Positions 4,832 through 20,000 of a stretch of DNA of 20,000 nucleotides are shown here, piece by piece. The notes beneath the pieces are model-generated. The model was given only the letters and a program-made list of their open reading frames with translations. It was not told the DNA's origin and did not search any database. Position numbers and translations under genes: made by a program. The stretch is from IMG/VR virus record IMGVR_UViG_3300000553_000007; one strand, written 5' to 3'. Numbering within the stretch: position 1 is the first letter of the stretch; every line of letters begins with the position of its first letter. The DNA is from an uncultured virus (IMG/VR IMGVR_UViG_3300000553_000007) (lineage: Duplodnaviria; Heunggongvirae; Uroviricota; Caudoviricetes).

Positions 4832-4923
4832 TGGCGGTTAATGAGGGAATTGAACCCCCGCCGGACGCAATGCCGGATTAGTTTTCGAAACTAACGTAGC
4901 GAACCAACATCTACCTACTAACC
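4832..4923 (-). tRNA. tRNA-Ser(CGA)
   Basis: Cloverleaf; TTAGT-TTCGAAA-ACTAA; long variable arm; G73 and CCA. Confidence 0.9.
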
Positions 4924-4927
4924 AAAA

Positions 4928-5149
4928 TTATTTAGACCAACGGTGTTTTCTGCTATGATATTCCCAACAAATGTTACAATTATTTATTGGTGGAGTTGAG
5001 CCGGTATAATCCGTATGAAGAGGACATGATTCCATATCTAATTGAATTCTTAAAGAATCGATATTAAATGGTTTGCCATTTGGTAAGATGAACTTGGTAG
5101 TTATCTCAGGTTCTTCTTTTTTAAACCAGTTTCGTATCCAATTAAACAT
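4928..5149 (-). CDS. hypothetical protein with Cys/His cluster
   Basis: 73-aa ORF filling the gap between two tRNA-Ser genes; CPLH..CNIC. Confidence 0.6.
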   Translation of the reverse strand: MFNWIRNWFKKEEPEITTKFILPNGKPFNIDSLRIQLDMESCPLHTDYTGSTPPINNCNICWEYHSRKHRWSK

Positions 5150-5153
5150 AAAA

Positions 5154-5247
5154 TGGCGGTTGTGATAGGATTCGAACCTACGGGCCGGCTTTCACCGAAC
5201 CTCCTAATTTCCAATCAGGTGCCTTATAGCCACTCAGCCACACAACC
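5154..5247 (-). tRNA. tRNA-Ser(GGA)
   Basis: CCTGA-TTGGAAA-TTAGG; long variable arm; GCCA end. Confidence 0.93.
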
Positions 5248-5295
5248 AAAACGGTGAGTTATAATATAAATATATCAAATGATATTATAACATCA

Positions 5296-5330
5296 AAAAG
5301 AAAACACCAACCAAAAATGGAAGGTGTTTT
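5296..5330 (-). terminator. intrinsic terminator-like hairpin
   Basis: AAAACACC..GGTGTTTT stem followed by CTTTTT, directly after tRNA-Gln. Confidence 0.55.
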
Positions 5331-5337
5331 ATGAAAC

Positions 5338-5411
5338 TGGCTGGGGATGAAGGAATCGAACCTTCGTCTATCGGTTCAGAGCCGACTGTAATACCATTAT
5401 ACAAATCCCCA
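5338..5411 (-). tRNA. tRNA-Gln(CTG)
   Basis: GTCGG-CTCTGAA-CCGAT; U1-A72; GCCA end. Confidence 0.93.
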
Positions 5412-5422
5412 ATAAAGACAAC

Positions 5423-5596
5423 TTAAAGTTTCTTTGCATCAGTAGAGACTTCTGCCACTACTGTTTTTGCGGTTGTTGCCACTACTACTGCATCGGCCAC
5501 TACTTTATTGACTACTGCGACGTGTTTACGTCCGACCAATACGCCGACGATAAATGTTACAACACCGACAATGGATGCTACTATTACGATACTCAT
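5423..5596 (-). CDS. 57-aa single-pass membrane protein (absent from ORF track)
   Basis: MSIVIVASIVGVVTFIVGVLVGRKH..KKL*, with AAGGA ribosome-binding site upstream. Confidence 0.7.
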   Translation of the reverse strand: MSIVIVASIVGVVTFIVGVLVGRKHVAVVNKVVADAVVVATTAKTVVAEVSTDAKKL

Positions 5597-5686
5597 ATTT
5601 TTTCCTTTATGTTAATTGTTATTTCAACAAACCATTGGGGTTTGTGATAATAAATATGACAATATAAGTATAAAAACTTACAAAAT

Positions 5687-5760
5687 TGGTGGAGCCGCCG
5701 AGAATCGAACTCGGGCCTTTTCATTGCGAGTGAAACGTATTCCCACTTTACCACGGCCCC
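5687..5760 (-). tRNA. tRNA-Ala(CGC)
   Basis: TTTCA-CTCGCAA-TGAAA; G3:U70; ACCA end. Confidence 0.93.
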
Positions 5761-5810
5761 CATAAACTCCCTCACAAGAGGGAATTGTATCTTCTCATAA
5801 TATAGAAGAC

Positions 5811-6000
5811 TAGATACAGAATTTTAAGGTTATCTCCTGGACCATTTTTACAACTTATCCATTGTTGAGTGGTCTTTTTACAACTTTACTCTGTTGGGCG
5901 TTTTTACAGTAGTCACTGCTACCCCTGTCAAAGACAGGATTGTGAGCCTTGTTAGGCTTGTTTTTTAGCTAGATATTTTTATCTGCTGTTACCGTATCTA
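5811..6000 (-). ncRNA. stem-closed structured RNA of unknown family (AGATAC..CAGCA family, long form)
   Basis: Ends pair (TAGATACGG/CTGTATCTA); several internal hairpins; no ORF in track. Confidence 0.55.
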
Positions 6001-6003
6001 AAT

Positions 6004-6077
6004 TGGTGGAGCCAAAGGGAATCGAACCCTTATTTCAACACTGCCAGCGTCGTGTCTTACCATTGGACGATGACCCC
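6004..6077 (-). tRNA. tRNA-Ala(GGC)
   Basis: CGACG-CTGGCAG-TGTTG; G3:U70; ACCA end. Confidence 0.92.
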
Positions 6078-6081
6078 ATTT

Positions 6082-6479
6082 TGTGACGTAGCCGTAACCG
6101 CCGTTTTGTTTTATCTCTACATTTATCTCAGTATTTCTACTGGTTCTCCGTTAAAGAGAACTGCTCCAACCTTTCCTTTACATCGGCCAACACTAGCCTT
6201 TGGAACTTTAGGATTACTGTTAATTTGTGGTACAAACGAATGTAATGAACAGGAACTATCGGACGTGTATTGGATTACTTGTCTACCTGTTTTCCCTTAA
6301 AGTCTTTCACTTTAAGTTTCCTCCGACTATTTTATGGTTTTACCCACGTTACATTCTCCCAACATCTGCTGTACAGAGGCGAATTTCCTCTGGTAATATC
6401 TTGAACCATTGTCAAGCCTAGTTTCATCAACTTCCGATTCGAACGGACTTATTACCAGCGTAGAGTCGCTTACGTCACA
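6082..6479 (-). ncRNA. rnpB: bacterial-type RNase P RNA
   Basis: P1 TGTGACGTA/TACGTCACA; P2 CTCTAC/GTAGAG; P3 CTGGTAAT/ATTACCAG; CR-I GAGGAAATTCGCC pairs with CR-V AACAAAACGGCGGTTA to form P4; CR-IV AGATAAATG; ~398 nt. Confidence 0.88.
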
Positions 6480-6484
6480 TCAAT

Positions 6485-6512
6485 AATATACATCTAAATT
6501 ATTAAATGTCAA
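6485..6512 (-). promoter_or_regulatory. sigma70-like promoter of the RNase P RNA
   Basis: TTGACA-16 bp-TATATT, ~5 nt before P1. Confidence 0.7.
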
Positions 6513-6524
6513 GCGTTGAAATTT

Positions 6525-6602
6525 TGGTGGTGTCTATGAGATTCGAACTCATACATTTTCACTTCTCAGGCGAACGACTCCTGCCAGTTGGTCTAAGACA
6601 CC
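6525..6602 (-). tRNA. tRNA-Leu(GAG), short variable loop
   Basis: TTCGC-CTGAGAA-GTGAA; 5-nt variable loop; ACCA end. Confidence 0.88.
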
Positions 6603-6607
6603 GTAAA

Positions 6608-6685
6608 TGGTATGCGTGACAGGACTCGAACCTGTGATAAATCTCAGTGTAAATGAGACGCCGTTGCCGCTGGAGCCACACGCAC
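6608..6685 (-). tRNA. tRNA-Val(TAC)
   Basis: TCTCA-TTTACAC-TGAGA; ACCA end. Confidence 0.92.
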
Positions 6686-6693
6686 ATTAAATG

Positions 6694-6770
6694 TGGTCGG
6701 AATGCCGGGACTCGAACCCGGAAATCTCCTGGACCCAAACCAGGCGCGATACCAATTACGCTACATTCCG
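6694..6770 (-). tRNA. tRNA-Pro(TGG)
   Basis: CCTGG-TTTGGGT-CCAGG; C1-G72; ACCA end. Confidence 0.95.
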
Positions 6771-6780
6771 ATTAAAAATT

Positions 6781-6872
6781 TGGCGGTTCCGACCAGATTC
6801 GAACTGGTGGCAGTTTTTTAGGCTGCGAGAGTTTAGCAAACTCTTGGTTTAATCCATCTCACCCACAGAACC
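6781..6872 (-). tRNA. tRNA-Ser(GCT)
   Basis: AGAGT-TTGCTAA-ACTCT; long variable arm; GCCA end. Confidence 0.93.
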
Positions 6873-6886
6873 ATAATCAATAACTA

Positions 6887-7411
6887 TTATATATCTTTAG
6901 TAATGTCAAGGTTTTTCTCAACTTTAAATCCTTGATATATTAAGATTTCTTTACAAAGTTGTATAAAATCTTCTAAAATCATATCACCTTTAGCAAAATT
7001 TGCTTCTTTACAAGTTAATCCTAAATTATCAAAAGAACATCCCCCGCCCTTTGAAACAGGTATTATATGGTCACATTGATATGTTTTAGGTTGTAATAAA
7101 TCTATTTTTCTACCACTTAAATAACAGATTGGAGTATTAATTAATTTGTCTTTAAATTCATTAGATGAAAAATTCAAAGATTTTCTTTTTTGTAAACAAT
7201 GCCTATTTCCATTAACAAAACTAAAATTATCTTTTTTTCTTTTTAAAATTCCAGTAAGAGTTTTTTTATAATTTTTGACACGTAATTTACATTTGTCTTT
7301 TTGTCCATCGCCACAATGATAAGCAATGGTTCCTTTAGAGCATCCAAGAATAGATTTTATTTCATTATAGGATTTTCCCTCACTTCGTAATTTAAGTATT
7401 TCATTTTTCAT
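6887..7411 (-). CDS. HNH endonuclease with N-terminal HTH (free-standing homing endonuclease-like)
   Basis: LRSEGKSYNEIKSILGCSKGTIAYH (HTH); CYLSG..DHIIPVSKGG..NL..CKEANFAK; start moved to ATG 7411 because the longer ORF runs through a tRNA. Confidence 0.85.
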   Translation of the reverse strand: MKNEILKLRSEGKSYNEIKSILGCSKGTIAYHCGDGQKDKCKLRVKNYKKTLTGILKRKKDNFSFVNGNRHCLQKRKSLNFSSNEFKDKLINTPICYLSGRKIDLLQPKTYQCDHIIPVSKGGGCSFDNLGLTCKEANFAKGDMILEDFIQLCKEILIYQGFKVEKNLDITKDI

Positions 7412-7469
7412 GAATATACATATAAACGAGTTCGAATAAATACGAATAAAAATATTCGAACTATTAAAT

Positions 7470-7562
7470 TGGCGGTTGGAGAGGGATTCGAACCCCCGGC
7501 GGTTTTTTAGGCCGCTATAGTTTTCAAGACTATCGCCATCAGCCGGACTCGGCCACCCAACC
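7470..7562 (-). tRNA. tRNA-Ser(TGA)
   Basis: ATAGT-CTTGAAA-ACTAT; long variable arm; GCCA end. Confidence 0.93.
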
Positions 7563-7571
7563 ATAAATTCT

Positions 7572-7679
7572 TTAATCAAAGCCTGTAATTTCCCAGGCAT
7601 TTAATAATCCATCGTAGGATTCGGCTTCTTGTTGACGACGTTCCTCTTCTTCGGCGTCATAATAATCATCTTCTTCCAT
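7572..7679 (-). CDS. 35-aa acidic peptide (absent from ORF track)
   Basis: MEEDDYYDAEEEERRQQEAESYDGLLNAWEITGFD*, 8 nt after a -10 box. Confidence 0.5.
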   Translation of the reverse strand: MEEDDYYDAEEEERRQQEAESYDGLLNAWEITGFD

Positions 7680-7687
7680 TGACAATA

Positions 7688-7715
7688 ACTATATCATCAT
7701 TTATGAAATAGTCAA
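7688..7715 (-). promoter_or_regulatory. sigma70-like promoter
   Basis: TTGACT-16 bp-TATAGT with TG extension. Confidence 0.55.
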
Positions 7716-7725
7716 TAATAAATTA

Positions 7726-7822
7726 TGCAATTTGAGAAGGATTCGAACCTTCGACCAACCCAATCAAGGGTTCGGCATGGCTATCAAGGCCAATACGTTA
7801 AACCACTCCGACACCAAACTAC
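7726..7822 (-). pseudogene. degenerate Ser(TGA)-like tRNA with extended acceptor stem and no CCA
   Basis: Perfect T-arm GAAGG-TTCGAAT-CCTTC; long variable arm; loop CTTGATA; acceptor GTAGTTTGG/TCAAATTGC. Confidence 0.6.
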
Positions 7823-7829
7823 ATATTTG

Positions 7830-8237
7830 TTAACAATCAAAAATCTGTTCGTATTTTCCAATAGTCATATGAAAACATTTTATATGACCCGATGGTGGTA
7901 ATGTATATTTACTATAAATTGACATACCAAGTTCTTCTCTAATTGATTCCAATCTCTTACACCACACATTTAAAAAGAAATATCCATTTCCTTCAAGAAC
8001 GTATGAGTCATACATAAACTCAACTTCTTCGCCTTCATAGTCATCCCAATATCGTATTCTTGGTGGAATTTCTAATTTAGGTCTTACGACTGTGATGTGA
8101 GCCGGCCACTTTGATTTAAATGGTCTTCTATATAACGGTATTAACGAATAATAATCCGATAAATCTTGACCAACTTCAACCGTTACTCTAAATCCATTTT
8201 CATCGTTGTAATGAATTTTTCCTTTTCCTAAAAACAT
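7830..8237 (-). CDS. 2H phosphoesterase family protein
   Basis: Two HxT motifs (AHITV, FHMTI); paralog of 9999..10397, which supports the MFLGKG start. Confidence 0.75.
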   Translation of the reverse strand: MFLGKGKIHYNDENGFRVTVEVGQDLSDYYSLIPLYRRPFKSKWPAHITVVRPKLEIPPRIRYWDDYEGEEVEFMYDSYVLEGNGYFFLNVWCKRLESIREELGMSIYSKYTLPPSGHIKCFHMTIGKYEQIFDC

Positions 8238-8260
8238 TTCTGTAATATTACCTTTCAAAT

Positions 8261-8334
8261 TGGAGCCCGGTGTCAGAATCGAACTGACGTTTCTTCGTTA
8301 CAAGGGAAGAGTAATGCCATTATACTAAACGGGC
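8261..8334 (-). tRNA. tRNA-Thr(TGT)
   Basis: CTTCC-CTTGTAA-CGAAG (31:39 mismatch); TCCA end. Confidence 0.88.
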
Positions 8335-8636
8335 AAATTTTCACTGTCTTTTCTAGCTTTCTCGTATGATGAACCTATTTTTTTATATAAATCATTTGGA
8401 TGAAACCCATCTGTATTCCATTTACCATGTGTAATATGAAAATGTTCGGCATTCCAATGACAATCTGGACACAAGGAAATACCATTATTTAGAACATATC
8501 CACCATTTGGCATTTCGTGGCGGTCTGTAATATGATGTGCATCTAATTTTTCTTTATTATTGCACATTCTACATTTACGACCGTCTCTTTCAAATACACC
8601 TTCACGGAATAGGTGTCTTTTTTGATATTTGTTCAT
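8325..8636 (-). CDS. HNH endonuclease
   Basis: VFERDGRKCRMC..LDAHHI..NGISLCPDCH. Confidence 0.88.
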   Translation of the reverse strand: MNKYQKRHLFREGVFERDGRKCRMCNNKEKLDAHHITDRHEMPNGGYVLNNGISLCPDCHWNAEHFHITHGKWNTDGFHPNDLYKKIGSSYEKARKDSENLPV

Positions 8637-8877
8637 ACTTACTTTCTATTTGTTTCTTCGCTTCTTCAAATGTCACAGACTTTGGTTGTGCGTCAACTGT
8701 TGCTTGAACTTTTTTACGAGTAGCTTGTAACTTTTCATCTAGTTTGATACATTTCAATAGACGTTTTAATCCACGTTTTGAAAGAGGCATCATAGTTTGT
8801 AATTGTTCCAACGCTTGACGTTCTGTTGTCAATGGTTGATTTAATCTACCTTCTAAAGTAGGCCATTTATTTTTCAT
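8602..8877 (-). CDS. hypothetical protein
   Basis: ORF track 8602..8901; start uncertain, ATG 8877 chosen. Confidence 0.55.
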   Translation of the reverse strand: MKNKWPTLEGRLNQPLTTERQALEQLQTMMPLSKRGLKRLLKCIKLDEKLQATRKKVQATVDAQPKSVTFEEAKKQIESKYEQISKKTPIP

Positions 8878-9109
8878 AAATGTGGTCATATTTACCAACA
8901 AACTCGAATGTCTTTTCTATGTTGGGGAAATTTTTTAACCAACCATCAATTTTATCTTCATTATTCCCATACATTACCATTCCATTTGGTGTAATTGGCT
9001 CTTTACTACTACCATCATCACTGATGATGAACGCAGGCATTCCGTTTATATAAACTATATTTTTATATATGTCGTTTTCAAATTTGGAATTTACAATTTC
9101 ACATATCAT
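8867..9109 (-). CDS. hypothetical protein
   Basis: 80-aa ORF with ATGA overlap to the upstream gene. Confidence 0.6.
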   Translation of the reverse strand: MICEIVNSKFENDIYKNIVYINGMPAFIISDDGSSKEPITPNGMVMYGNNEDKIDGWLKNFPNIEKTFEFVGKYDHIYEK

Positions 9110-9318
9110 AAATTATAATTTTTCAGTAATTTATCCAAAATAGATTTATCAATTGTTTGCGCTAAAAAATTAGCAGCAGCATCAGGGCAATAATCCCATC
9201 TATTACATGTGGGACATCTATAATGGGATGTTCTGACGGAAATGCCCATATCCCCAATTTTGGGGTCGCCGTGTTCGACGATTGTCATCTCAATATCGCA
9301 CTTTTCACATTTCTTCAT
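9106..9318 (-). CDS. small zinc-ribbon protein
   Basis: CEKC..CPTC; ATG 9318 lies 5 nt after a -10 box. Confidence 0.65.
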   Translation of the reverse strand: MKKCEKCDIEMTIVEHGDPKIGDMGISVRTSHYRCPTCNRWDYCPDAAANFLAQTIDKSILDKLLKNYNL

Positions 9319-9323
9319 AAAAT

Positions 9324-9351
9324 ATAATAACACATCTTGTGGATATGTCAA
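9324..9351 (-). promoter_or_regulatory. sigma70-like promoter
   Basis: TTGACA-16 bp-TATTAT. Confidence 0.6.
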
Positions 9352-9362
9352 GCGTTTAAAAA

Positions 9363-9439
9363 TGGCGAGATAGACGAGACTCGAACTCGCAACTTTTCGG
9401 GCGACAGCCGAATACTCTAACCAATTGAGTTACTACCCC
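9363..9439 (-). tRNA. tRNA-Asp(GTC)
   Basis: TTCGG-CTGTCGC-CCGAA; GCCA end. Confidence 0.93.
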
Positions 9440-10002
9440 GTTAATTGACATCCGAAATTTACTTTAAAAATTGTTCTGATGGCATCTTTACCACTCTCTT
9501 GCAATTCTCTAGTTCCGATACCGGCAAAATTTTGTGTCAACTTTGGAATTTCGCCCCAAAGACACTCAAATCCAACAATTGGCATATATCGAAACCAAGA
9601 ACCTCCCATATCGTCTTGAAGAAATACAAACGTAGGTTTATCACAGTCAATTGCCATTTGAACCGCCCATCCTGTTCCTCCATCCACAGTCGATTTTGAT
9701 AAAAACTTTTTCGCTATAGCGAAAACCGCATCTGAATTCTTGATTTGAAACCAATTCCTAGATAATAAATTTTTTATATAGGTTGGTTGACCTTGTGGAT
9801 ATTTTTTTAGAACTTTATTAGCTCTTAATACTGCTTCAAATCCTTCATTTAATTCCGGTCTTTCTAGAATCTTTCTATTCTTACCTTTTTGCGTATGACC
9901 ATAAAAAGAATAAGCGATGGTTTTAACACCGTATTTATCGCCTTCGTTTTCCCAGAACATATCAGCACCGGGACAACCACCACTATGACAAGTATAATTC
10001 AT
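9433..10002 (-). CDS. SLOG-superfamily (YpsA/DprA/LOG-like) nucleotide-binding protein
   Basis: HSGGCPGAD, RN...SDAVFAI, GGTGWAV..A..KP.FVF and FAGIGTR motifs. Confidence 0.7.
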   Translation of the reverse strand: MNYTCHSGGCPGADMFWENEGDKYGVKTIAYSFYGHTQKGKNRKILERPELNEGFEAVLRANKVLKKYPQGQPTYIKNLLSRNWFQIKNSDAVFAIAKKFLSKSTVDGGTGWAVQMAIDCDKPTFVFLQDDMGGSWFRYMPIVGFECLWGEIPKLTQNFAGIGTRELQESGKDAIRTIFKVNFGCQLTG

Positions 10003-10397
10003 AAATTAAATCCTTTACCCAAAGTACAATGAAAACATTTTAAATATCCTAATGGCGGAATTGTTATTCTACTTATTATAGACAATCCTAATTCTTTACG
10101 AATATCTTCCATTTCAACTGACCATAAATTGAACCACCAATAATTTTTTTCATATAAAATATTATAGTCGTACACGAAATTTGCAACTTGGCCTTCTCTA
10201 TTTCCCCATTTATCCCAATTAATAATTGGGTCTATTGGGCTTACGACGGTTACGTGGGCATTCCATCTTGGTTTTAATGCTCGGTAATATTTAGGAATTA
10301 GAGAATAGTAATAATCTCCAATGGATTGTTCCACACTTACGGTAACTCTATCTCCATCGGATTTATCATAATGAATTATTCCACTAGACTTAAACAT
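9999..10397 (-). CDS. 2H phosphoesterase family protein
   Basis: Two HxT motifs (AHVTV, FHCTL); paralog of 7830..8237. Confidence 0.75.
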   Translation of the reverse strand: MFKSSGIIHYDKSDGDRVTVSVEQSIGDYYYSLIPKYYRALKPRWNAHVTVVSPIDPIINWDKWGNREGQVANFVYDYNILYEKNYWWFNLWSVEMEDIRKELGLSIISRITIPPLGYLKCFHCTLGKGFNL

Positions 10398-10402
10398 CCC
10401 AA

Positions 10403-10430
10403 ATTATACATTACCGAATTGAGAAGTCAA
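10403..10430 (-). promoter_or_regulatory. sigma70-like promoter; probably leaderless 2H gene
   Basis: TTGACT-16 bp-TATAAT, 5 nt before ATG 10397. Confidence 0.7.
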
Positions 10431-10829
10431 GATTTAATTTCCATAACATCGTCAGAAGACCAAATAACGGTATCTTCTTCATCGTTATCCCATGTTACTT
10501 TATTAGACTCTAATTCAATTGCCAAATTTATCAATTCTCTTTTCTGTAATTGATTCGGTTTGTGGAGAGAGTTGTTTGTGCACAATTCTTTAAGATAATT
10601 TGAATTTGTGATTCTTTGCCAACCGAGTTTCCATAAATCTAATATATGGTCTGAGGCATCATTGAAATCGTTTTTATTTTTTGTGGCCTGCCATAATATA
10701 TTACGAGCATCTGAACCGTGTGAGTATTTGATTGGAATAAAAGTTCCATTTGGCATCTGCCAAGAATATGCCCGTTTTTTATCGGATTCTAATGTCTCAT
10801 TTAGTATGTCTTTTAGCTTAATCGCTCAT
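10427..10829 (-). CDS. hypothetical protein; apparent 1-nt insertion right after the start codon
   Basis: Frame of track ORF 10427..10756 stays open upstream as IKLKDILNE..; ATG 10829 behind an ATATTTAT motif is 1 nt out of frame (ATG AGC G ATT AAG). Confidence 0.55.
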
Positions 10830-14007: not shown

Positions 14008-14067
14008 ATTGGTATCAATATATATAGTCGAACTCAATGAAAATACATTGATTTTTAATTATAAATA

Positions 14068-14141: not shown

Positions 14142-14149
14142 GTAAAAGT

Positions 14150-14226: not shown

Positions 14227-14268
14227 ATTTAAATCGTAACAGGTGTTTGATGTGGGGAATCTCTGTTC

Positions 14269-14766
14269 CTACTTAACACCCTTAACCTGTTTAAATTTGA
14301 AATTTATAGATTTTTTTAAAATCATTTTGGTATTGTATGAAAGAATGGTTGGTGATGCTTTCCAAGATGCTATTCTATCCAATAGAATAATACTGGCTTT
14401 TTGGAATGATTTAAATACTAATTCACTACAAAACCACTTTCCATAAGAATTTCTTTCTTCTTCGGTATCACATATAACGAATCCAATCACGGACCAGTAG
14501 TCATATTTTTTTCCAATTTGTTCCACCAAGAATTTTTCAATTATCATATCTTGTTTTTTTGTGGTATGGACTTCAAATATATCTATGATACAATCCTTAG
14601 TAAGTCCATCGGTGATACTTTTACGTCGTCTGACGCCATGAAATTCTTTTGATTCTATGATAGAACCATCATTTAATAAGACTGCTGAGTGGGAATATCC
14701 ACCTCTCGAAAAGTAAAGTATTAGTTTACTTACAACACTAGTTCCTTTATACATTACTATCCTCAT
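14269..14766 (-). CDS. permuted papain-like NlpC/P60 enzyme (YiiX/YebB-like)
   Basis: YSHSAV, GKKYD and WFCSELV motifs. Confidence 0.85.
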   Translation of the reverse strand: MRIVMYKGTSVVSKLILYFSRGGYSHSAVLLNDGSIIESKEFHGVRRRKSITDGLTKDCIIDIFEVHTTKKQDMIIEKFLVEQIGKKYDYWSVIGFVICDTEEERNSYGKWFCSELVFKSFQKASIILLDRIASWKASPTILSYNTKMILKKSINFKFKQVKGVK

Positions 14767-14778
14767 GATATATAAATA

Positions 14779-15009
14779 TCAGAATATTTCTCTATCACTG
14801 ACATTGGGAGCATCTTTAATGTTAATAAATTCTTCACAAAAGGATTCATAATTAACTGTATCCTTGTTGTATCCATCTCCGTAGTAAATGTTTACATATT
14901 GTAAACCTTTTTCTTTTGCATCTTTTAACCACGATTCAAATCGTTCCGTGTAAATAGTTGAAATCGTTTCGGATTTTCTTTGTGGAATATTTTCAAACGG
15001 ATGTGTCAT
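14779..15009 (-). CDS. hypothetical protein
   Basis: ATG 15009 with AAAGGA ribosome-binding site; the longer track start lies inside a tRNA. Confidence 0.65.
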   Translation of the reverse strand: MTHPFENIPQRKSETISTIYTERFESWLKDAKEKGLQYVNIYYGDGYNKDTVNYESFCEEFINIKDAPNVSDREIF

Positions 15010-15030
15010 GGTAATCCTTTCTTTTATAAA

Positions 15031-15105
15031 TGGCCCGGAAAATTGGTAACGCTCCAATCTCTCATCCTCTTCAGGGATACGCTAATCAATCTCAGCTATT
15101 TCCGG
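15031..15105 (-). tRNA. atypical tRNA-Phe(GAA) with non-canonical T-loop
   Basis: TATCC-CTGAAGA-GGATG; T-arm ATTGG-AGCGTTA-CCAAT; GCCA end. Confidence 0.75.
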
Positions 15106-15113
15106 TTTAAATT

Positions 15114-15189
15114 TGGAGCCACAGGTCGAAATCGAATCGGCGACGCACACGCTTTCAACGTGTCGCTCTACCAACTGAGCTACTGTGAC
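15114..15189 (-). tRNA. tRNA-Phe(GAA)
   Basis: ACACG-TTGAAAG-CGTGT; TCCA end. Confidence 0.88.
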
Positions 15190-15200
15190 TTGTGAAGTTA

Positions 15201-15641
15201 TTAATAACCAATTACATATAGACTTCCTGTAATATTTCCAGAACAAGAATGTGCGGATGTAAGATACCATTTTCTATTTCCTGCTAGAAGAAATACGCTA
15301 GATGTATTTGGTGTTAAGTTAAAAGAAAATTCATTTTTAAAAGTCATTCCATTTATGGAAGAACTGACTGATATAGATGATGTAGCATTTCCTGAACCGG
15401 TAGTTGCGGCTTGAAATGAAAATGTAGTATAATCTGACACATCTACGGACGACGATTCTGTTATACTGCTACCATAAACTAAAAAGCTACCAAGTGAGTT
15501 CGTTATTGGCCAGTTAGATGATGTAAAAAATACATTTATTAACGTTGATATCTGTCCAACTACATTTTGAGATGTTGTGTTTAATAACCCAAGTTGAATT
15601 GGCGGACTTCCTATTTTTGTAGTCGGTATATTATTAGGCAT
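15201..15641 (-). CDS. Ser/Thr-rich beta-rich protein, possibly structural
   Basis: 146-aa ORF; ends in VIGY like 239..1318. Confidence 0.65.
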   Translation of the reverse strand: MPNNIPTTKIGSPPIQLGLLNTTSQNVVGQISTLINVFFTSSNWPITNSLGSFLVYGSSITESSSVDVSDYTTFSFQAATTGSGNATSSISVSSSINGMTFKNEFSFNLTPNTSSVFLLAGNRKWYLTSAHSCSGNITGSLYVIGY

Positions 15642-15690
15642 AATTCTCTATAACTATAAAAAACATAAACATAAATCATTTATATTAAAT

Positions 15691-15764
15691 TGGTTCCCTC
15701 TGATAGAATCGAACTATCACTCACAGATTCAAAGTCTGCTTTGCTACCACTACAACAAGAGGGA
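15691..15764 (-). tRNA. tRNA-Gln(TTG)
   Basis: GCAGA-CTTTGAA-TCTGT; U1-A72; ACCA end. Confidence 0.9.
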
Positions 15765-15862
15765 ATAAAATTGGCCCGGTCTTTCCTAGAGTCAATCATC
15801 ATAAGTATACGGGTGGAACCGGTTAACTCATTACGGAGCGATTTGCCGTTTGTTTAACAAAT

Positions 15863-15936
15863 TGGTGGGGCGTATAGGAATCGAACCTATGTCAAAAGAG
15901 TGTCATTCTTCCGTTCTACCACTAAACTAACTCCCC
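15863..15936 (-). tRNA. tRNA-Val(GAC)
   Basis: GAAGA-ATGACAC-TCTTT; ACCA end. Confidence 0.88.
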
Positions 15937-15942
15937 AAACTA

Positions 15943-16019
15943 TGGCGGGAATAGCCGGATTCGAACCGAGCGTCATTACCGTGACAGGGTAATTGATGAA
16001 ACCACTCTCTTATATTCCC
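15943..16019 (-). tRNA. tRNA-Asp(GTC), weak D-stem
   Basis: TTACC-CTGTCAC-GGTAA; GCCA end. Confidence 0.82.
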
Positions 16020-16570
16020 AAATTTTTATTAATGTATATTTTTTTAACTAATTCTAAAAATCTATTAACTGGCAAATCCCATTTCATAATATTCACGTTT
16101 TTATGAACCCAATGAACGTTATCTTCCGTATATCCTTTTGAACTATCAATTCTGTCCAATGACGCGGTTCCATCGGAAGTTTTTACTTTACTTCTAAAAC
16201 ATATTTCTTCTCCAGATAAAGAACATTTCTTATTTTGTTTTAAAAACATCTCCCATAAAAAATCTATAGTCACATTAAATTCTAAATTTCTTGATTCGGC
16301 TTCTCTTTTTGTTTTTGAAAAATATGACCGACTTAAATCTCCACTACCTTTCCAAGTTAAAGATTCTTTTCCGGTTTTATTAAGAATACAACCACAACTT
16401 TTTTTAGTTCCATTAATCAACAATCGTGATTGGGCAATCGTCTCATTTCCACAATCACATTTACATTTCCACATTGCATGTCTTGTTTTATTTAAATGAC
16501 TAAATTCAACAACTGTTAATTTATTGAATTTTTTACCTTTAATATCTTTTTTGTATGTCAGTATCTTCAT
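16010..16570 (-). CDS. HNH-type homing endonuclease with N-terminal Cys-rich domain
   Basis: WKCKCDCG..SCGC; QNKKCSLSG; ASLDRIDSSKGYTEDNVHWVHKNVNIMK. Confidence 0.88.
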   Translation of the reverse strand: MKILTYKKDIKGKKFNKLTVVEFSHLNKTRHAMWKCKCDCGNETIAQSRLLINGTKKSCGCILNKTGKESLTWKGSGDLSRSYFSKTKREAESRNLEFNVTIDFLWEMFLKQNKKCSLSGEEICFRSKVKTSDGTASLDRIDSSKGYTEDNVHWVHKNVNIMKWDLPVNRFLELVKKIYINKNLGI

Positions 16571-16662
16571 ATTTAATATATATAAGACTATGACACGAAA
16601 GATTAAATATAAAACTTATACTGTTAGACGTCATTGGCCGCTTCCTCACTAACGTAAAAAAC

Positions 16663-16719
16663 TAGATACATTTTTTTTCATTAATAATATGAATTTTTTT
16701 TGATTGCTGGATGTATCTA
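16663..16719 (-). ncRNA. stem-closed small RNA (AGATAC..CAGCAATC family)
   Basis: TAGATACAT/ATGTATCTA stem followed by CCAGCAATCAAAA. Confidence 0.55.
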
Positions 16720-16990
16720 AATCACTTCACCACCCTCTAACACTAGAGGCATTATGTTTTCTAAGACTGTGCGATAACTGTCGTGGTTACTAAATCGGGC
16801 GGTAGCGACCCTGATTAATTCGAACGTCTGGCGACTCTTAATTAACCCACGCTATTTCCGCTAAATTATAAATTTAATTGATAAATTATAGGATTTCAAT
16901 CTATTCGCGTATCCACTCATGGGATAAACTTTCTCGTTTGTTCTAAATAAACCCTTGTTTATTCGGTGTATCTTGAACATTTATCAAAAT

Positions 16991-17065
16991 TGGAGCGTAT
17001 AGAGAATTTTGAAATCTCGACGTTCACGTTGGAAGCGTGACATTCTGCCTCTGAATTATATACGC
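16991..17065 (-). tRNA. tRNA-Gly(TCC)
   Basis: TCACG-CTTCCAA-CGTGA; TCCA end; T-stem lacks the usual G53-C61 pair. Confidence 0.87.
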
Positions 17066-17149
17066 GTAAATTGAATATCGTTGATTCGCCAGGCCGGTTC
17101 AACGAGAAAAACCTTGATAGCTTACTTACCACTGGTAAGGAAGTCAAAT

Positions 17150-17233
17150 TGGTCGTCGTGGAAAGAATCGAACTTTCTACCTATGTGGTTAAGAGTTTTA
17201 CAGACTCTCGCTCACCATTGAGACATCACGACG
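17150..17233 (-). tRNA. tRNA-Tyr(GTA)
   Basis: AGAGT-CTGTAAA-ACTCT; variable arm; C1-G72; ACCA end. Confidence 0.85.
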
Positions 17234-17237
17234 AAAT

Positions 17238-17323
17238 TGGCTCCGGTCGTAGGACTTGAACCTACATTGGGATTTCTCCCACTGATTAACAATCAGTTGC
17301 ATTACCAATTATGCTAAACCGGA
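17238..17323 (-). tRNA. tRNA with Asn(GTT) anticodon and long variable arm
   Basis: ACTGA-TTGTTAA-TCAGT; variable arm GGGA-GAAA-TCCC; GCCA end. Confidence 0.88.
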
Positions 17324-17334
17324 ATTAAATTATT

Positions 17335-17450
17335 TTTCATCAATTTCATGTCTGGCTTACACAAAAGTTTTACAACCTCTGGTTAGGATTCGAACCTATT
17401 ACATTCATACCGATGCCGTTTTTTAGTTATCGGTTTACGAATTGACGAAA
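17335..17450 (-). ncRNA. circularly permuted tRNA-like RNA (YrlA-like architecture)
   Basis: Terminal stem TTTCGTCAATT/AATTGATGAAA; internal T-arm TAGG-TTCGAAT-CCTA followed by hairpin CAGAGGTT-GTAA-AACTTTTG. Confidence 0.55.
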
Positions 17451-17451
17451 T

Positions 17452-17542
17452 TGGCTGGTGGCAGAGGACTTGAACCTCCATAATGATTTCTCATATACAT
17501 CTGGGTAACAACCAGGTCTCTTACCAATTAGAGTAACCACCA
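17452..17542 (-). tRNA. tRNA with Asn(GTT) anticodon and long variable arm
   Basis: CCTGG-TTGTTAC-CCAGA; variable arm ATGA-GAAA-TCAT; GCCA end. Confidence 0.85.
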
Positions 17543-17544
17543 AT

Positions 17545-18099
17545 TTAAAGTAATTTTAATTTTTTCAAACGTTTTCTTACCGCTGCTCCTGATATTCCTA
17601 ATGAGGATGCTATATGCGTTTGAGGGATTTTTTTAACAACCCATAAATCGTGTAAATCTATATTATCCCAATCTACCGTTCTTGCCTTTTTCCCGGCACA
17701 TTCTAATGAACAAGTAATTTTTTGTATAGACATTTTTTTATTACAAATTGGACAGTTTGTAAATCGTTCTTCATCTTTTTTATTCTGTTCAATCATAACA
17801 GAGTCATCACATAATCTAATGTTATCTGGAATTTTAGTCATTCCATTATGAACTTCACTATGACAGTTAGCACAAAGTAATACACATTTTTTTAATTCTG
17901 GAATTACATATGCCCATTTTTGTGGGTTGCCCATAACACTACTTAAAGAAAATTCTTTTTTAGATGGGTCTAAATGATGACAATGAAAAGCGTCATTACA
18001 TTTATCATATCCACAAATTCCACATTTGTTGCCAAACGAATTTACAATTTTTTGTTTAAATCGTCGGCGCCACTCTTTTACTTTTATACTATTACTCAT
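17545..18099 (-). CDS. HNH endonuclease with zinc finger and C-terminal HTH
   Basis: CGICGY..HHLDP..CVLLCANCHSEVH; CPIC..CSLEC; IASSLGISGAAVRKRL. Confidence 0.88.
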   Translation of the reverse strand: MSNSIKVKEWRRRFKQKIVNSFGNKCGICGYDKCNDAFHCHHLDPSKKEFSLSSVMGNPQKWAYVIPELKKCVLLCANCHSEVHNGMTKIPDNIRLCDDSVMIEQNKKDEERFTNCPICNKKMSIQKITCSLECAGKKARTVDWDNIDLHDLWVVKKIPQTHIASSLGISGAAVRKRLKKLKLL

Positions 18100-18322
18100 A
18101 CCACCATATACATAGTAACAAAGAATGTTAAAACATAAATTATGGTATTAATAATTAAAACCGTAGTAAGACCTCTGTCGGAGTTGGCTCCGATTCCTAT
18201 TAAGGTGGCAAGGTAACAAGCCCTGTGATTCCACTTTAACGTTGGTTAGGTTACTTACAAAATTGTTGATAGTGACAAGCCTCGCTCTGCAGAACTACGC
18301 ATTCTATATCATCTATCAAAAT

Positions 18323-18400
18323 TGGTGGACTACGGTGGTCATGAACCACTTCACGCGATTTAGAACTGTGACTTACTTTGAATAATCGCTCTCCTAGCCC
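18323..18400 (-). ncRNA. D-armless tRNA-like RNA with Ala-type acceptor
   Basis: GGGCTA/TAGTCC-ACCA (G3:U70, A73); T-arm GTGG-TTCATGA-CCAC; central GCGATT/AATCGC helix. Confidence 0.55.
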
Positions 18401-18404
18401 AAAA

Positions 18405-18569
18405 CTAATTCAAACACTTCTGACATAATAATTGATTTCCTATCAATGTCAAGTAATCATTACCGTCATTTCCATTTGTTATTGGAAAGTATTTTCCACA
18501 TAAATCACATACGTCTATCAAAGCATTATTACCATAATAGACTTGTTCTTCGATTGTTAATTCTTTCAT
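18405..18569 (-). CDS. 54-aa zinc-ribbon protein (absent from ORF track)
   Basis: MKELTIEEQ..CDLC..CQKCLN*. Confidence 0.6.
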   Translation of the reverse strand: MKELTIEEQVYYGNNALIDVCDLCGKYFPITNGNDGNDYLTLIGNQLLCQKCLN

Positions 18570-18573
18570 AAAT

Positions 18574-18649
18574 CGGTGTATTAGACGAGACTTTAACTCG
18601 CACTATCTGGACGTTATCTGGATGTTCTATCTTTTTAAACTACTAATAC
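18574..18649 (-). pseudogene. degenerate tRNA
   Basis: Acceptor GTATTAG/CTAATAC, D-stem and T-stem intact; anticodon stem mispaired; ends ACCG. Confidence 0.6.
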
Positions 18650-18766
18650 ATAAATTGGGATTTACACCCGACGTTTTTTAAGTTCGTCGTCTATTTCTAG
18701 TCACACTCATATCCTGGCTCTAACGCCAAGCGCCTCTTTAAAGTTGGGCTATTCTCTGATTAAAAT

Positions 18767-18856
18767 TGGTCGGAGTGGTGAGATTTGAACTCACAAGGCC
18801 ACACGTGGCGCTCGGTTCCAGGCCGAGGTGACTGCCAATTATCTTCCTACACTCCG
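18767..18856 (-). tRNA. atypical tRNA-Pro(TGG) with long variable arm
   Basis: C1-G72, A73; CTCGG-CCTGGAA-CCGAG (C33, A37); variable arm GCCACGTGTGGC. Confidence 0.75.
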
Positions 18857-18868
18857 TTAAAATTAAAT

Positions 18869-18943
18869 CATCGTTGACAGGTGTTTCGCCTGCGTCTCTG
18901 GCCTCAATGGCCAGCGTCGTTTATAAGTTGGACTACAACGATG
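18869..18943 (-). ncRNA. cloverleaf RNA with intact stems, non-canonical loops and no CCA
   Basis: CATCGTTG/CAACGATG; GTC/GAC; CTGGC-CATTGAG-GCCAG; GCAGG-CGAAACA-CCTGT. Confidence 0.6.
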
Positions 18944-19035
18944 TTAAATTGGTGTGTTTTTGTTTATAAAGAACTCACAATCTTTAGATAAATAATAGAT
19001 TTTCATCCTATACGGTTTATCATTACCCGCTTAAA

Positions 19036-19110
19036 TGGTGGGTTCGTCGAGACTCGAACTCGATTCCAATCGCTTAAGAGGCGATGCTTCACCTTCAAAG
19101 TTTCAAACCC
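19036..19110 (-). tRNA. tRNA-Lys(CTT)
   Basis: ATCGC-CTCTTAA-GCGAT; A8 instead of U8; ACCA end. Confidence 0.87.
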
Positions 19111-19130
19111 ATTGATAATTTTTATTTACT

Positions 19131-19220
19131 ACCCCCGCTGTGTTATCGCATATTCATCATAATCTACACCACAAGAATTATCGAAAACTTGGTTGGCTTC
19201 AAACCAACGACTCGGGACGT
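19131..19220 (-). ncRNA. circularly permuted tRNA-like RNA
   Basis: 5'->3' order: TCCCG, AGTC, T-arm GTTGG-TTTGAAG-CCAAC, CAAG..CTTG hairpin, TG, D-like stem GTGT/ACAC, CGGGG. Confidence 0.5.
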
Positions 19221-19231
19221 GATTTTGAAAT

Positions 19232-19305
19232 TGGTCGTCTTACGTGGAATCGAACCACGGTCGTTCGGTTATCGGCCGACAGCTCTACCATTGAGTTATA
19301 AGACG
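19232..19305 (-). tRNA. tRNA-Ile(GAT)
   Basis: TCGG-CCGATAA-CCGA (C33); ACCA end. Confidence 0.88.
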
Positions 19306-19384
19306 GTTGGAGGCAAAGTTAAAGAGGTTCTAACGCTAATATTTCTATTATGTAAAACTTTATCCCTTGTCCCAAATATTAAAT

Positions 19385-19473
19385 TGGTGCTGCCGGTGAG
19401 AGTCGAACTCACGGTGGGTGTTATCCTCCCGATTAAAAGTCGGGTGCTTTCGGCCATCTAAGCGAACGACAGC
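19385..19473 (-). tRNA. tRNA with Lys(TTT) anticodon and long variable region
   Basis: CCCGA-CTTTTAA-TCGGG; ~15-nt variable region AGGATAACACCCACC; ACCA end. Confidence 0.83.
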
Positions 19474-19886
19474 AATATTTCGTTCAAATTACTAAATTCA
19501 TCTATTGTGTGACATTCGCGAACTTGTTTGTGTTCGCCTTTTGTGACACGCAATGTAAAAGTATTCTTGTTTTGACATGCTAATTTAGCAGGTATAAAAA
19601 TAATTTTATCTAAAGCTGGCAAATATACCGAAAACAAATCTATATCGTTTTCATTATATGTATATTTGTATCCATTTGGGCCACACTTTCTTAATGGCAA
19701 TGTAACCATTCCATTTTTTTCTGTGGCATATTTTACTTGAATTTTTACAAGTTTTTGATTAATTTCTGCAATCAAATCAATTTTTGAAAAATCTCCAAGT
19801 TCGGTAAATACGTTTACTCCTAACTTGTGAAGTTCCTTGATTGTTGCCGAATATCCTAGATTTCCCTTTTGTTTACTATGTTTCAT
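19458..19886 (-). CDS. PD-(D/E)XK endonuclease (group I intron-associated PDDEXK-like family, free-standing)
   Basis: KQKGNLG..KIDLIAE..KIQVKY..YNENDIDLFSVY; ATG 19886 follows ATATTTAT. Confidence 0.85.
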   Translation of the reverse strand: MKHSKQKGNLGYSATIKELHKLGVNVFTELGDFSKIDLIAEINQKLVKIQVKYATEKNGMVTLPLRKCGPNGYKYTYNENDIDLFSVYLPALDKIIFIPAKLACQNKNTFTLRVTKGEHKQVRECHTIDEFSNLNEILLSFA

Positions 19887-19933
19887 GATAATAAATATCA
19901 ATCTACGAATCAAAAGAGTAGTAATCTGTTAAT

Positions 19934-20000
19934 TGGCAGGCGGAGTCGGAATTGAACCGACGAAGCCAAGATTTGGAGTTTCGGCACCGCCCAGCGGCCC
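19934..20000 (-). tRNA. tRNA-Trp(CCA), 5' end outside the window
   Basis: Loop CTCCAAA; T-arm GTCGG-TTCAATT-CCGAC; GCCA end. Confidence 0.8.

Follow-up and report, generated by a model that had tools for sequence, protein, structure and literature searches.

A tRNA gene array of an uncultured freshwater tailed phage with a predicted RNase P RNA gene and a varied set of candidate non-coding RNA cassettes

The 20,000-nucleotide (nt) stretch of DNA analyzed here, referred to as the window (IMG/VR record IMGVR_UViG_3300000553_000007), is the transfer RNA (tRNA) gene region of an uncultured freshwater tailed phage. Its guanine-plus-cytosine (GC) content is 35%, and its likely genes are all on the minus strand except one. 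A megablast search with the whole window gave no match among cultured-phage records. A first-pass annotation, made from the sequence alone, had described a tRNA array packed with structured RNA elements and RNA-processing genes, and had suggested that its transcripts are diced into tRNAs and tRNA mimics. The 14 spacer elements listed in that annotation are designated below by the coordinate given there. The principal features of the array are as follows.

4832..19473, minus strand: array of 34 tRNA genes
19934..20004, minus strand: 35th tRNA gene, tRNA-Trp(CCA), cut by the window end at 20000 (L001:1724-1794)
6083..6478, minus strand: RNase P RNA, class-A-derived, 396 nt, located by homology to the copy in relative L002 and by its helices
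6483..6512, minus strand: promoter-like site (TTGACA, 16 or 18 nt, TATATT/TATTAT; 11 of 12 matches) just upstream of the RNase P RNA

Relatives for comparison were drawn from virus and metagenome contigs and ranked by the identity of their SpoU protein. Contigs L001, L028, L109 and L111 represent the same phage as the window. The nearest independent relative, L002 (the same in sequence as L037, L107 and L108), has a SpoU identity of 81% and 38 tRNAs; L029 to L033 are short contigs with SpoU identities of 83 to 89%, and the value for L003 and L004 is 63%. G008 is a 147.8-kb record (95% complete by CheckV) that has the RNase P RNA in common with the window and only 13 tRNAs. Apart from the RNase P RNA, no cassette of the window was found in G008, G007 or G004.

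The number of tRNA genes claimed previously was confirmed: ARAGORN called 33, and Rfam added one at 18577-18649 to give 34, all on the minus strand. CCA is encoded in 32 of the 34, and in 15 of these it is followed by ATTT. The sequence CCAATTT is present in 27 copies compared to an expected 8.2 +/- 2.8, a number reached by none of 200 shuffles. Five of the copies close non-tRNA units (15772, 18323, 18656, 18767 and 18950), and six non-tRNA units have a CCA end. CCA-AUUU junctions are common to tRNAs and cassettes; similar A/T spacers around both had been noticed in the first-pass annotation.

Long variable arms, which give a class-II shape, were found in tRNA-Lys(UUU) at 19385-19473 (89 nt) and in tRNA-Asn(GUU) at 17238-17323 (86 nt) and 17452-17542 (91 nt), and four short Leu tRNAs of 77 to 79 nt are without a long arm (6525-6602, 11296-11374, 11914-11990 and 11999-12076). 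Long-armed Lys(CUU), Arg, Ala, Asp, Thr and Ile(UAU) tRNAs were seen in relatives. The tRNA at 7727-7820 is Ser(UGA)-like, the second such gene, lacks CCA and scores 38 bits; its L002 counterpart (L002:15051-15146) was called with a two-base anticodon, and the two are probably either a pseudogene or an odd tRNA kept in both phages. The Rfam-only tRNA at 18577-18649 has a mispaired anticodon stem and ends in ACA-CCG, without CCA. One natural-variant contig has an 11-nt insertion behind position 18613 and two substitutions relative to this gene, so the window copy may be a deletion derivative. A scan for acceptor-plus-T-arm modules returned 176 on the minus strand and 139 on the plus strand, compared to 81 to 113 in shuffles, and was too permissive for use.

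The RNase P RNA claimed by the first-pass annotation proved to be real: a homologue of 6083-6478 matches RF00010 and 12 helices covary, though Rfam is silent on the window copy. The surrounding gap (6078-6524, 447 nt) contains no minus-strand open reading frame (ORF) of 50 amino acids (aa) or more. The L002 copy (L002:16301-16568) matched RF00010 over model positions 1-367 with 45.3 bits and an E-value (E) of 5.7e-13, and the L108 copy scored equally. The RF00010 gathering threshold of 100 bits was reached by no phage copy tested; the copies of the window and G008 gave no score. The window copy was linked to that of L002 by nhmmer (E 3e-11) and to that of G008 by 84.5% identity across 155 nt.

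Because MAFFT misaligned the window copy around two insertions, helices were placed by coordinates in four full copies (window, L113/G008, L002 and L110/G007) and one partial copy (L033). The twelve helices are P1, P2, P3, P4 (in two parts), P5, a stub in the S-domain (S-stub), P15, P16, P17 and two GAAA-loop hairpins in the P18 region. It was found that 232 of 236 cells pair and that double-sided changes are present at 35 of the 53 pair positions across the five copies; three of the four unpaired cells stem from an L033 index that was off by one. In P4, the bulged U is kept, and two positions have three different Watson-Crick pairs, one of them A-U, G-C and C-G among the copies. The CR-I, CR-IV and CR-V motifs (GAGGAA, GAGATAAATG and ACARAAC) are present in all four full copies, as is RGGTTG at the L15 position. 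The L15 GGU of class A RNase P pairs with the 3'-RCCA of the substrate.

Two parts of the window copy, a P3 extension at about 6399-6449 and an S-domain-like insert of 103 nt at about 6246-6348, are without counterpart in the relatives of 215 to 270 nt. In the L002 copy, RF00010 model positions of about 78-213 (the S-domain, P7-P14) are replaced by 14+7+22 nt, and such a stub is present in four relatives. The 103-nt module of the window contains a P12-like GAAA hairpin at the S-domain site and gave no model match. The P3 extension (6399-6449) includes a T-loop-like hairpin, UUCGAAU, with a 4-bp closing stem. A promoter-like site similar to that at 6483-6512 lies upstream of the L002 RNase P RNA.

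As judged from covariation and motifs, the catalytic core of a phage class-A-type RNase P RNA is intact, with P1-P5, the P4 pseudoknot and bulged U, P15-P18 and the L15 GGU as in the bacterial class A RNA (RF00010; rnpB or M1 RNA type). The phage RNA differs from the bacterial one in that its gene lies within a phage tRNA array, that it scores far below the family threshold, and that its S-domain is a stub (four relatives) or a divergent 103-nt module (window). It also differs in that no phage rnpA was found: RnpA (PF00825) was absent from all five related records searched, including the 95%-complete G008, and use of a host protein subunit is inferred from this. To our knowledge, RNase P RNA has been regarded as a strictly cellular gene. 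The literature search gave no paper describing a phage-encoded RNase P RNA, and the words 'phage', 'virus', 'viral' and 'plasmid' are all absent from the text of PMC7191817. A phage copy whose substrate-reading half has been pared down or rebuilt, and which lies amid its own CCA-encoded substrates, would be a natural minimal ribozyme on which the share of RNase P required for tRNA recognition could be tested directly.

Two further observations concern this RNA. G007 (L110, L127-L130) is a 78.7-kb contig of 28% GC, 16% complete, with a mini RNase P RNA of about 215 nt and no tRNA called by ARAGORN. A blastn search of the phage collection with the L002 RNase P RNA returned only a weak 51-nt match (80%) to the CR-IV/CR-V end, at 181322-181369 of LR756501.1 / LR756503.1; these unannotated 735-kb uncultured-phage records may contain a further phage RNase P RNA.

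The spacers between the tRNA genes hold elements of several kinds, and the listed elements are not one class: a minority are promoters, a terminator-like hairpin, small ORFs or unsupported spacer. About ten appear from folding and comparison to be real non-coding cassettes, of tRNA-shaped, multi-hairpin and UAGAUAC scaffold kinds. The elements of these kinds are as follows, with z-scores (z) of the minimum free energy (MFE) against shuffled sequences.

5810..6001, minus strand: UAGAUAC cassette, long form (element 5811), with a 174-nt multi-hairpin insert and 9 of 9 closing pairs
10949..11014, minus strand: UAGAUAC cassette, short form (10950), with a 48-nt insert, directly upstream of tRNA-Lys
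11018..11090, minus strand: tRNA-sized cloverleaf-like RNA (11018) with an 11-nt 'anticodon' loop and an ACCA end, z -1.2
15772..15858, minus strand: four-hairpin cassette D (15772) ending in GCCA, compared with L029 and L030
16662..16804, minus strand: cassette C (16663), a three-way junction at 16726-16804 plus a short UAGAUAC hairpin at 16662-16720
17335..17447, minus strand: tRNA-derived cassette E (17335), a canonical T-arm-like hairpin plus a 10-bp hairpin, ends paired, z -2.8
18166..18265, minus strand: multi-hairpin cassette F (18166), z -2.1; 23 pairs in comparison to L002, 2 of them double-sided
18323..18401, minus strand: tRNA-like RNA without a D arm (18323), z -1.98, no homologue
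18767..18856, minus strand: long-armed tRNA-Pro(UGG)-like gene, outside the earlier list and missed by ARAGORN and the Rfam tRNA model
18869..18945, minus strand: cloverleaf-shaped orphan RNA (18869) with an 8-bp terminal stem, a 5-nt 'anticodon' loop and no CCA

The base-paired ends that had been claimed for the elements are clear in the MFE folds of 9 of the 14 (5811, 10950, 11018, 16878, 17335, 18166, 18266, 18323 and 18869), weak in three (12465, 15772 and 19131) and missing in two (12087 and 16663). The MFE z was -2.0 or lower for 4 of 18 singly folded elements, and -1.98 for 18323. When folding was compared with shuffled controls, the z-scores were thus mostly unremarkable, but ten genuine tRNAs of the window behaved alike, with values from +0.21 to -4.40, and so this test has no power to discriminate here.

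Homologues were found in relatives for 8 of the 14 elements (5811, 10950, 11018, 12087, 15772, 16663, 17335 and 18166), and each of these eight has some compensatory change; the alignments contain only 2 to 3 independent sequences each, so the covariation statistics are weak and are to be read as indications and not as proof. The identity of cassette DNA in relatives was 77 to 93%, compared to 70 to 81% for neighbouring protein genes. A scan of Rfam at the gathering threshold, and with E relaxed to 1 and to 10, gave no non-tRNA family for any cassette, with a weak tRNA-Sec match for 18767-18856. A terminator scan gave 18 sites versus 9.7 +/- 3.4, mostly plus-strand images of tRNA arms.

The UAGAUAC hairpin consists of a stem UAGAUAC/GUAUCUA around ACAGCAA-N-AAAA, a variable insert and then an A run. 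Within the stem, a core of 6 bp is invariant; the internal loop ACAGCAA...AAAA is conserved, and the insert varies from 35 to 174 nt. The 5' pattern occurs at 3 window sites versus 0.02 expected; the third, at 16662-16720, is a short form with a 41-nt insert and makes up the 3' half of element 16663. Other copies were found in L002 (4), L003 (2), L004, L029, L153, L155, L157, L159, L167 and L204, all on the tRNA strand, and most copies come directly after a CCA end and before the next tRNA.

All six core pairs are kept in 11 of 12 short-form copies; in the remaining one, 10949-11014, the sixth pair is U-G in place of C-G. The pairs flanking the core vary: AU 4, GC 3 and UA 2 at one position, and AU 5, CG 3, UA 1 and UG 1 at the other. 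These flanking pairs gave 13 double-sided cells compared to 5.3 +/- 1.7, a value reached by none of 500 shuffles; element 10950, which is 92 to 93% identical in L002, is covered by this test. For the long form 5810-6001, 31 pairs were predicted in L002 (stretch 5808-6003), one of them double-sided, and the whole gap had a z of -4.9. No Rfam match to the family and no description of it in the literature searched were found. On these comparisons, the UAGAUAC hairpin is a predicted RNA family that recurs in the tRNA arrays of distant phages, and it provides a conserved, searchable handle across unrelated phages for the puzzle of non-tRNA RNAs.

The hairpin was also considered as an intrinsic terminator, and this was rejected: the stem is AU-rich with 2 G-C pairs, the loops are 35 to 174 nt, a tRNA often starts downstream, there is no consistent U tract, and the hairpin is absent from the terminator scan. 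A scan of the viral collection gave, among the 80 loci listed, mostly chance matches (partner strand downstream at 7 versus 8 for the upstream control). In L153 (1669-1760), L157 and L159, a tRNA-like gene that ends in CCA, has an anticodon loop of the Leu(CAA) type and is not called by ARAGORN lies between a small ORF and the UAGAUAC hairpin, and the module order (ORF, CCA-ended tRNA-like RNA, UAGAUAC hairpin, tRNA) is the same as in the window. The inner submotif UCGUCUAA..UAGGACA.CG is common to the long-form hairpins L003:7957-8090, L004:4382-4520 and L002:9293-9425; it points to a second conserved cargo family within the scaffold.

At least five units are tRNA-shaped (11018, 17335, 18323, 18767 and 18869), which is in keeping with the tRNA mimics that had been claimed, but many cassettes are not tRNA-like. 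In the unit at 18767-18856, a 7-bp acceptor stem is followed by A73-CCA, the T arm is canonical, the variable arm is long, and the 5-bp anticodon stem closes the loop CCUGGAA; there is a weak D stem and a C at position 33. In comparison to L002, three of the five anticodon-stem pairs have a double compensatory change and the loop is identical. It aligns with the tRNA-Pro(UGG) of the array at 6694-6770, and the acceptor stems differ by one base. It gave no RF00005 match at E up to 10 (cut-off 29 bits) and no ARAGORN call, and a tRNA-Sec score of 19.6 bits (E 0.5). From these sequence features, we read it as a long-armed tRNA-Pro-like gene. This putative hidden gene and the proposed UAGAUAC scaffold family go beyond what the first-pass annotation had described.

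Four other units are tRNA-shaped. The orphan 18869-18945 folded with a z of -3.6 (matched by 0 of 200 shuffles) and has no homologue. In the unit at 18323-18401, which ends in ACCA, an acceptor-like stem is combined with a T-arm-like hairpin and with a 6-bp arm whose loop has 23 nt. The unit at 11018-11090 is kept in L002 and L032, with 21 pairs, one of them double-sided. For 17335-17447, comparison to L029 gave 20 pairs, 3 of them double-sided, with the T-arm stem included.

Among the multi-hairpin cassettes, 15772-15858 had 16 pairs, of which 95.8% of cells paired and 5 were double-sided, a result reached by 2 of 500 shuffles. Cassette 16662-16804, aligned with L029 and L002, had 28 pairs, 95.2% paired and 5 double-sided, reached by 17 of 500 shuffles; a blastn search of the phage collection with this cassette returned nothing. 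The remaining spacer elements and small ORFs are listed below.

12087..12135, minus strand: two small hairpins (12087) between tRNA-His and tRNA-Leu, z -1.2, ends unpaired
12465..12565, minus strand: stretch downstream of the SpoU gene (12465), z -0.25, no homologue
16878..16986, minus strand: orphan folded element with paired ends (16878), z -2.6, no homologue
18266..18318, minus strand: orphan hairpin with paired ends (18266), z -1.15, no homologue
18656..18766, minus strand: cassette flanked by two CCAATTT copies, z -0.5
19131..19227, minus strand: weakly folded orphan spacer (19131), z -0.56, no homologue
5248..5337, minus strand: terminator-like strong hairpin and U run, then an AT-rich palindrome, z -5.9 (minus strand) and -5.5 (plus strand)
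7572..7679, minus strand: ORF for 35 acidic aa behind a promoter-like site at 7688-7715, both in the gap 7563-7726
18405..18569, minus strand: ORF for a 54-aa zinc-ribbon-like protein

Element 12087 is 77% identical in L002, with the first hairpin changed on both strands as judged by eye. As a structured RNA, 12465-12565 is unsupported on the values given in the list.

The array also contains the following protein genes.

12566..13099, minus strand: SpoU/TrmH-family RNA 2'-O-methyltransferase (PF00588, 76 bits compared to a cut-off of 29.7, E 4e-21)
7830..8258, minus strand: small 2H phosphoesterase, paralogue 1 (HxT/S motifs, weak Pfam, structure matches)
9999..10397, minus strand: small 2H phosphoesterase, paralogue 2, overlapping the start of the SLOG-like gene
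9433..10002, minus strand: DprA-like / SLOG-type protein (phrog_768, DprA-like, E 1.9e-16)
11127..11291, minus strand: gene of a 54-aa helical protein, starting 4 nt after the CCA of tRNA-Leu

The match to PF00588 establishes the TrmH-type methylase that had been annotated; the NCBIfam models for the RlmB, TrmL and TrmH subfamilies all scored below their cut-offs. The two annotated 2H phosphoesterases, of 132 to 142 aa and 50% identical to each other, are supported. Both motifs (H54/T56 and H130/T132) are present in five sequences, with both His residues and T132 invariant and position 56 T in four and S in one. In Pfam, paralogue 1 matched PF13563 with 14.3 bits and PF22547 with 14.2 bits (E 0.04-0.055), short of the cut-off of 27, and its paralogue had no match. 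For an AlphaFold2 (AF2) model of mediocre quality (pLDDT 66.7), 17 of the 20 best VIA structure matches were 2H enzymes, with low Z values of 4.7 to 3.0. The best were 9q2y, 7t27 and 1vgj (Z 4.7-4.4), and the VIA set includes a phage phosphodiesterase, Acb1 and LigT. Foldseek gave no match to the model, and PDB sequence searches for the pair were uninformative. The two proteins thus resemble Acb1 and LigT/CPDase-type 2H enzymes in small size, the two HxT/S motifs and best structural matches, and differ in the low Z, the mediocre model and the sub-threshold Pfam scores. A 2H fold is likely on the modelling. Because they are structurally as near to Acb1 (anti-CBASS) as to RNA-repair enzymes, an anti-signalling role is as plausible as RNA repair, with a cyclic nucleotide signal or an RNA end as the candidate substrate, and the 'RNA-processing toolkit' of the first-pass annotation is only one reading of these genes.

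The claimed SLOG protein found agreement in the DprA-like PHROG match, but no Pfam family was above its cut-off (the only match was Nuc_deoxyrib_tr, E 0.01) and there was no PDB sequence match. Its Atlas cluster was at rank 22, with DprA on 11% of the members. The pair formed by this gene and 2H paralogue 2 is kept in the window, L002 and L033.

The product of 11127-11291 is probably the protein that had been called similar to the arm of valyl-tRNA synthetase (ValRS). This likeness found no backing in Pfam or the PDB: PF10458 was not matched at E up to 10, and ValRS did not appear in PDB profile searches with 4 or 30 sequences, leaving a weak Atlas lead of 0.85 to the PF10458 cluster. The protein is kept in relatives down to L004 and belongs to a widespread family, seen in the tRNA arrays of many unrelated phages, with 135 relatives of about 52 to 57 aa, with a Pfam domain in none of the 120 listed. 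At 25 of 27 viral loci of the family, tRNAs are found within 1.5 kb. The ATG often lies 3 to 8 nt after a tRNA CCA (loci L139-L163 included), with no visible ribosome-binding site and a tRNA directly after the stop codon. From this arrangement, tRNA processing may create a near-leaderless mRNA for the family, and the family suggests tRNA-punctuated expression in phages. In the window and in distant phages, the 54-aa gene lies one cassette upstream of a UAGAUAC hairpin.

Seven homing-endonuclease-like genes, absent from the first-pass annotation, are distributed through the array.

6887..7460, minus strand: HNH homing-endonuclease-like
8325..8636, minus strand: HNH endonuclease-like
11414..11911, plus strand: HNH endonuclease-like (phrog_10822, E 5e-44), the only plus-strand gene of the array
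13105..14037, minus strand: HNH/endonuclease-like (phrog_1271, E 1.3e-11)
16010..16570, minus strand: endonuclease-like (phrog_3322, E 8e-26)
17545..18099, minus strand: HNH endonuclease-like (phrog_35854, E 9e-26)
19458..19913, minus strand: PD-(D/E)XK endonuclease-like (PF11645, E 3e-19)

Much of the patchwork in the mosaic layout of the array is attributed to these genes. The gene at 16010-16570 sits between cassette 16662-16804 and tRNA-Asp, and in L029 and L002 the cassette abuts tRNA-Asp. The gene at 17545-18099 and the neighbouring tRNA-Asn form a block that is at a different array position in L002. Four DNA runs gave low-depth contigs, and among these one X21 contig of a natural variant skips 18652-18762, which are the 111 nt between two CCAATTT copies. 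These differences fit endonuclease-driven and repeat-driven shuffling of the array as a reading of the sequences. According to the extracts of PMC13096335, the T4 homing endonuclease SegB is often associated with tRNA genes and amplifies them, and the tRNA clusters of large virulent phages (T4 with SegB; T5-like) resemble the window in being long one-strand arrays interleaved with free-standing homing-endonuclease genes. The window differs in having HNH and PD-(D/E)XK types, seven in 15 kb, with movement inferred from relatives only.

The arrangement on one strand, the CCA-AUUU junctions, the RNase P RNA with its L15 GGU, the six CCA-ended non-tRNA units and the at least five tRNA-shaped units together make co-transcription and dicing by tRNA enzymes plausible. 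In the reading that we favour as probable, several promoters would give rise to array precursors. RNase P, made up of the phage RNA and probably a host protein subunit, and host 3'-end nucleases would cut these at CCA-AUUU(N)AU junctions. The cutting would release tRNAs and cassette RNAs as discrete species, in the manner of T4 RNAC and RNAD. Cassettes would be shuffled, inserted and deleted through homing endonucleases and through recombination at the junction repeats. The best guess for the cassette RNAs is small accessory species with fast turnover, alike in kind to the stable RNAs of T4 and T5, rather than debris. The dicing into tRNAs and mimics put forward earlier thus gains from the single strand, the common junctions and the phage RNase P RNA, but not in its treatment of the elements as one class.

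Several observations weigh against this account. The DNA of the window is carried by 24 freshwater metagenome runs, none of which is an RNA run. Promoter-like sites number 72 versus 64.8 +/- 8.8 expected, not above chance, so the transcription units are guesses. The degenerate-looking tRNAs at 7727-7820 and 18577-18649 imply that decay does occur within the array. Fourteen of the 18 singly folded elements have a z above -2, six of the 14 listed elements (12465, 16878, 18266, 18323, 18869 and 19131) have no homologue in relatives, and for the others, beside the small alignments, kinship among the sequences can beat shuffles without any structure. As to the RNase P RNA, the window copy had no Rfam match at the gathering threshold or with E relaxed to 1 or 10, it reads ACAAAAC where three relatives read ACAGAAC, and the helices were picked by eye from the same sequences, which favours pairing.

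Debris is one alternative: the elements other than the tRNAs and the RNase P RNA would be decaying tRNA genes, homing-endonuclease scars and neutral filler, in which AT-rich palindromes fold anyway. The two degenerate tRNAs, the T-arm relic in 17335-17447 and the seven endonuclease-like genes would all be expected from it, as would the six elements without homologue, the mostly unremarkable z-scores, and cassettes that come and go among close relatives and in the natural variant. It is nevertheless unlikely, because compensatory change was found in each cassette with a homologue and cassette DNA is conserved at a level with that of protein genes. In addition, the UAGAUAC core is invariant with covarying flanks across phages whose 54-aa protein is about 55% identical, and the tRNA-Pro-like unit has kept its anticodon loop while its stem changed at three pairs. 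The elements might instead act mainly in cis, as processing, folding-insulator or expression signals (RNase E/III sites, terminators, leaders) and not as stand-alone RNAs. Their location exactly at tRNA junctions suits this, and so do the terminator-like 5248-5337 and promoter-like 6483-6512 and 7688-7715, the position of most UAGAUAC copies between a CCA end and the next tRNA, and the start of the 54-aa ORF 3 to 8 nt past a tRNA CCA in several phages, as if processing made the 5' end of the mRNA. However, the inserts reach 174 nt and contain conserved hairpins themselves, which exceeds what a cleavage signal needs, the UAGAUAC stems are AU-rich with large loops and no consistent U tract, unlike intrinsic terminators, and the tRNA-shaped, CCA-ended units resemble products, which makes this explanation quite unlikely.

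The function proposed by the first-pass annotation, in which the cassettes are tRNA mimics or decoys that titrate tRNA-targeting nucleases or sustain translation and the methylase and 2H proteins protect or repair tRNAs, must be considered highly doubtful. Lys, Asn and Pro tRNAs are classes hit by known anticodon nucleases, and the unusual long-armed tRNAs bear just these anticodons. A tRNA shape is seen in at least five cassettes and a CCA end in six, and the fast turnover of cassettes is as in an arms race. Phage tRNA genes are known to counter tRNA-cleaving defences (extracts of PMC13096335), which is a further point in its favour. Yet the anticodon loops of the tRNA-shaped cassettes are mostly altered (5, 11 and 23 nt), and this loop is the part read by anticodon nucleases, so they fit poorly as decoys; many cassettes are not tRNA-like, and the nearness of the 2H proteins to Acb1 is as great as to RNA ligase/CPDase enzymes. 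A more ambitious idea, to which we give only an outside chance, is a self-contained RNA production line. Here, the phage ribozyme with a host protein would dice CCA-tagged precursors, and the UAGAUAC scaffold, possibly bound by the array-linked 54-aa arm-like protein, would present swappable cargos of 35 to 174 nt, which together with the anticodon-altered tRNA look-alikes would act as counter-defence or host-takeover RNAs. If true, phage RNA effector cassettes that come with their own processing enzyme would constitute a new class.

For the accessory-RNA reading, the closest known parallels are in T4 and T5. The tRNA region of phage T5 yields tRNA-like stable RNAs. In the extracts of PMC3014915 and PMC9697503, T4 RNAC and RNAD (species 1 and 2) are products of the tRNA region with roles unknown, and they resemble the cassettes as small non-tRNA RNAs among same-strand phage tRNA genes, presumably released by tRNA enzymes. 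The window differs in having ten or more candidate cassettes of several unrelated shapes, not two. A scaffold family that also occurs in distant phages accounts for three of them, and the likeness to the T4 RNAs is by description, with no match in Rfam. With the cassettes, the fifty-year-old puzzle of RNAC and RNAD would concern not two RNAs but a varied and shuffled repertoire, in which each piece is precisely located.

Three minor features of the locus were also observed. A YaeF/C92-type permuted papain-like protein is encoded inside the array at 14269-14766 (phrog_1128, E 8e-31), and a PhoH-like ATPase just outside it at 1336-2067. L109 and L111, which are independent assemblies of the same phage, both break at window position 12126, between tRNA-His and tRNA-Leu; this shared break may be due to strain variation or repeats.

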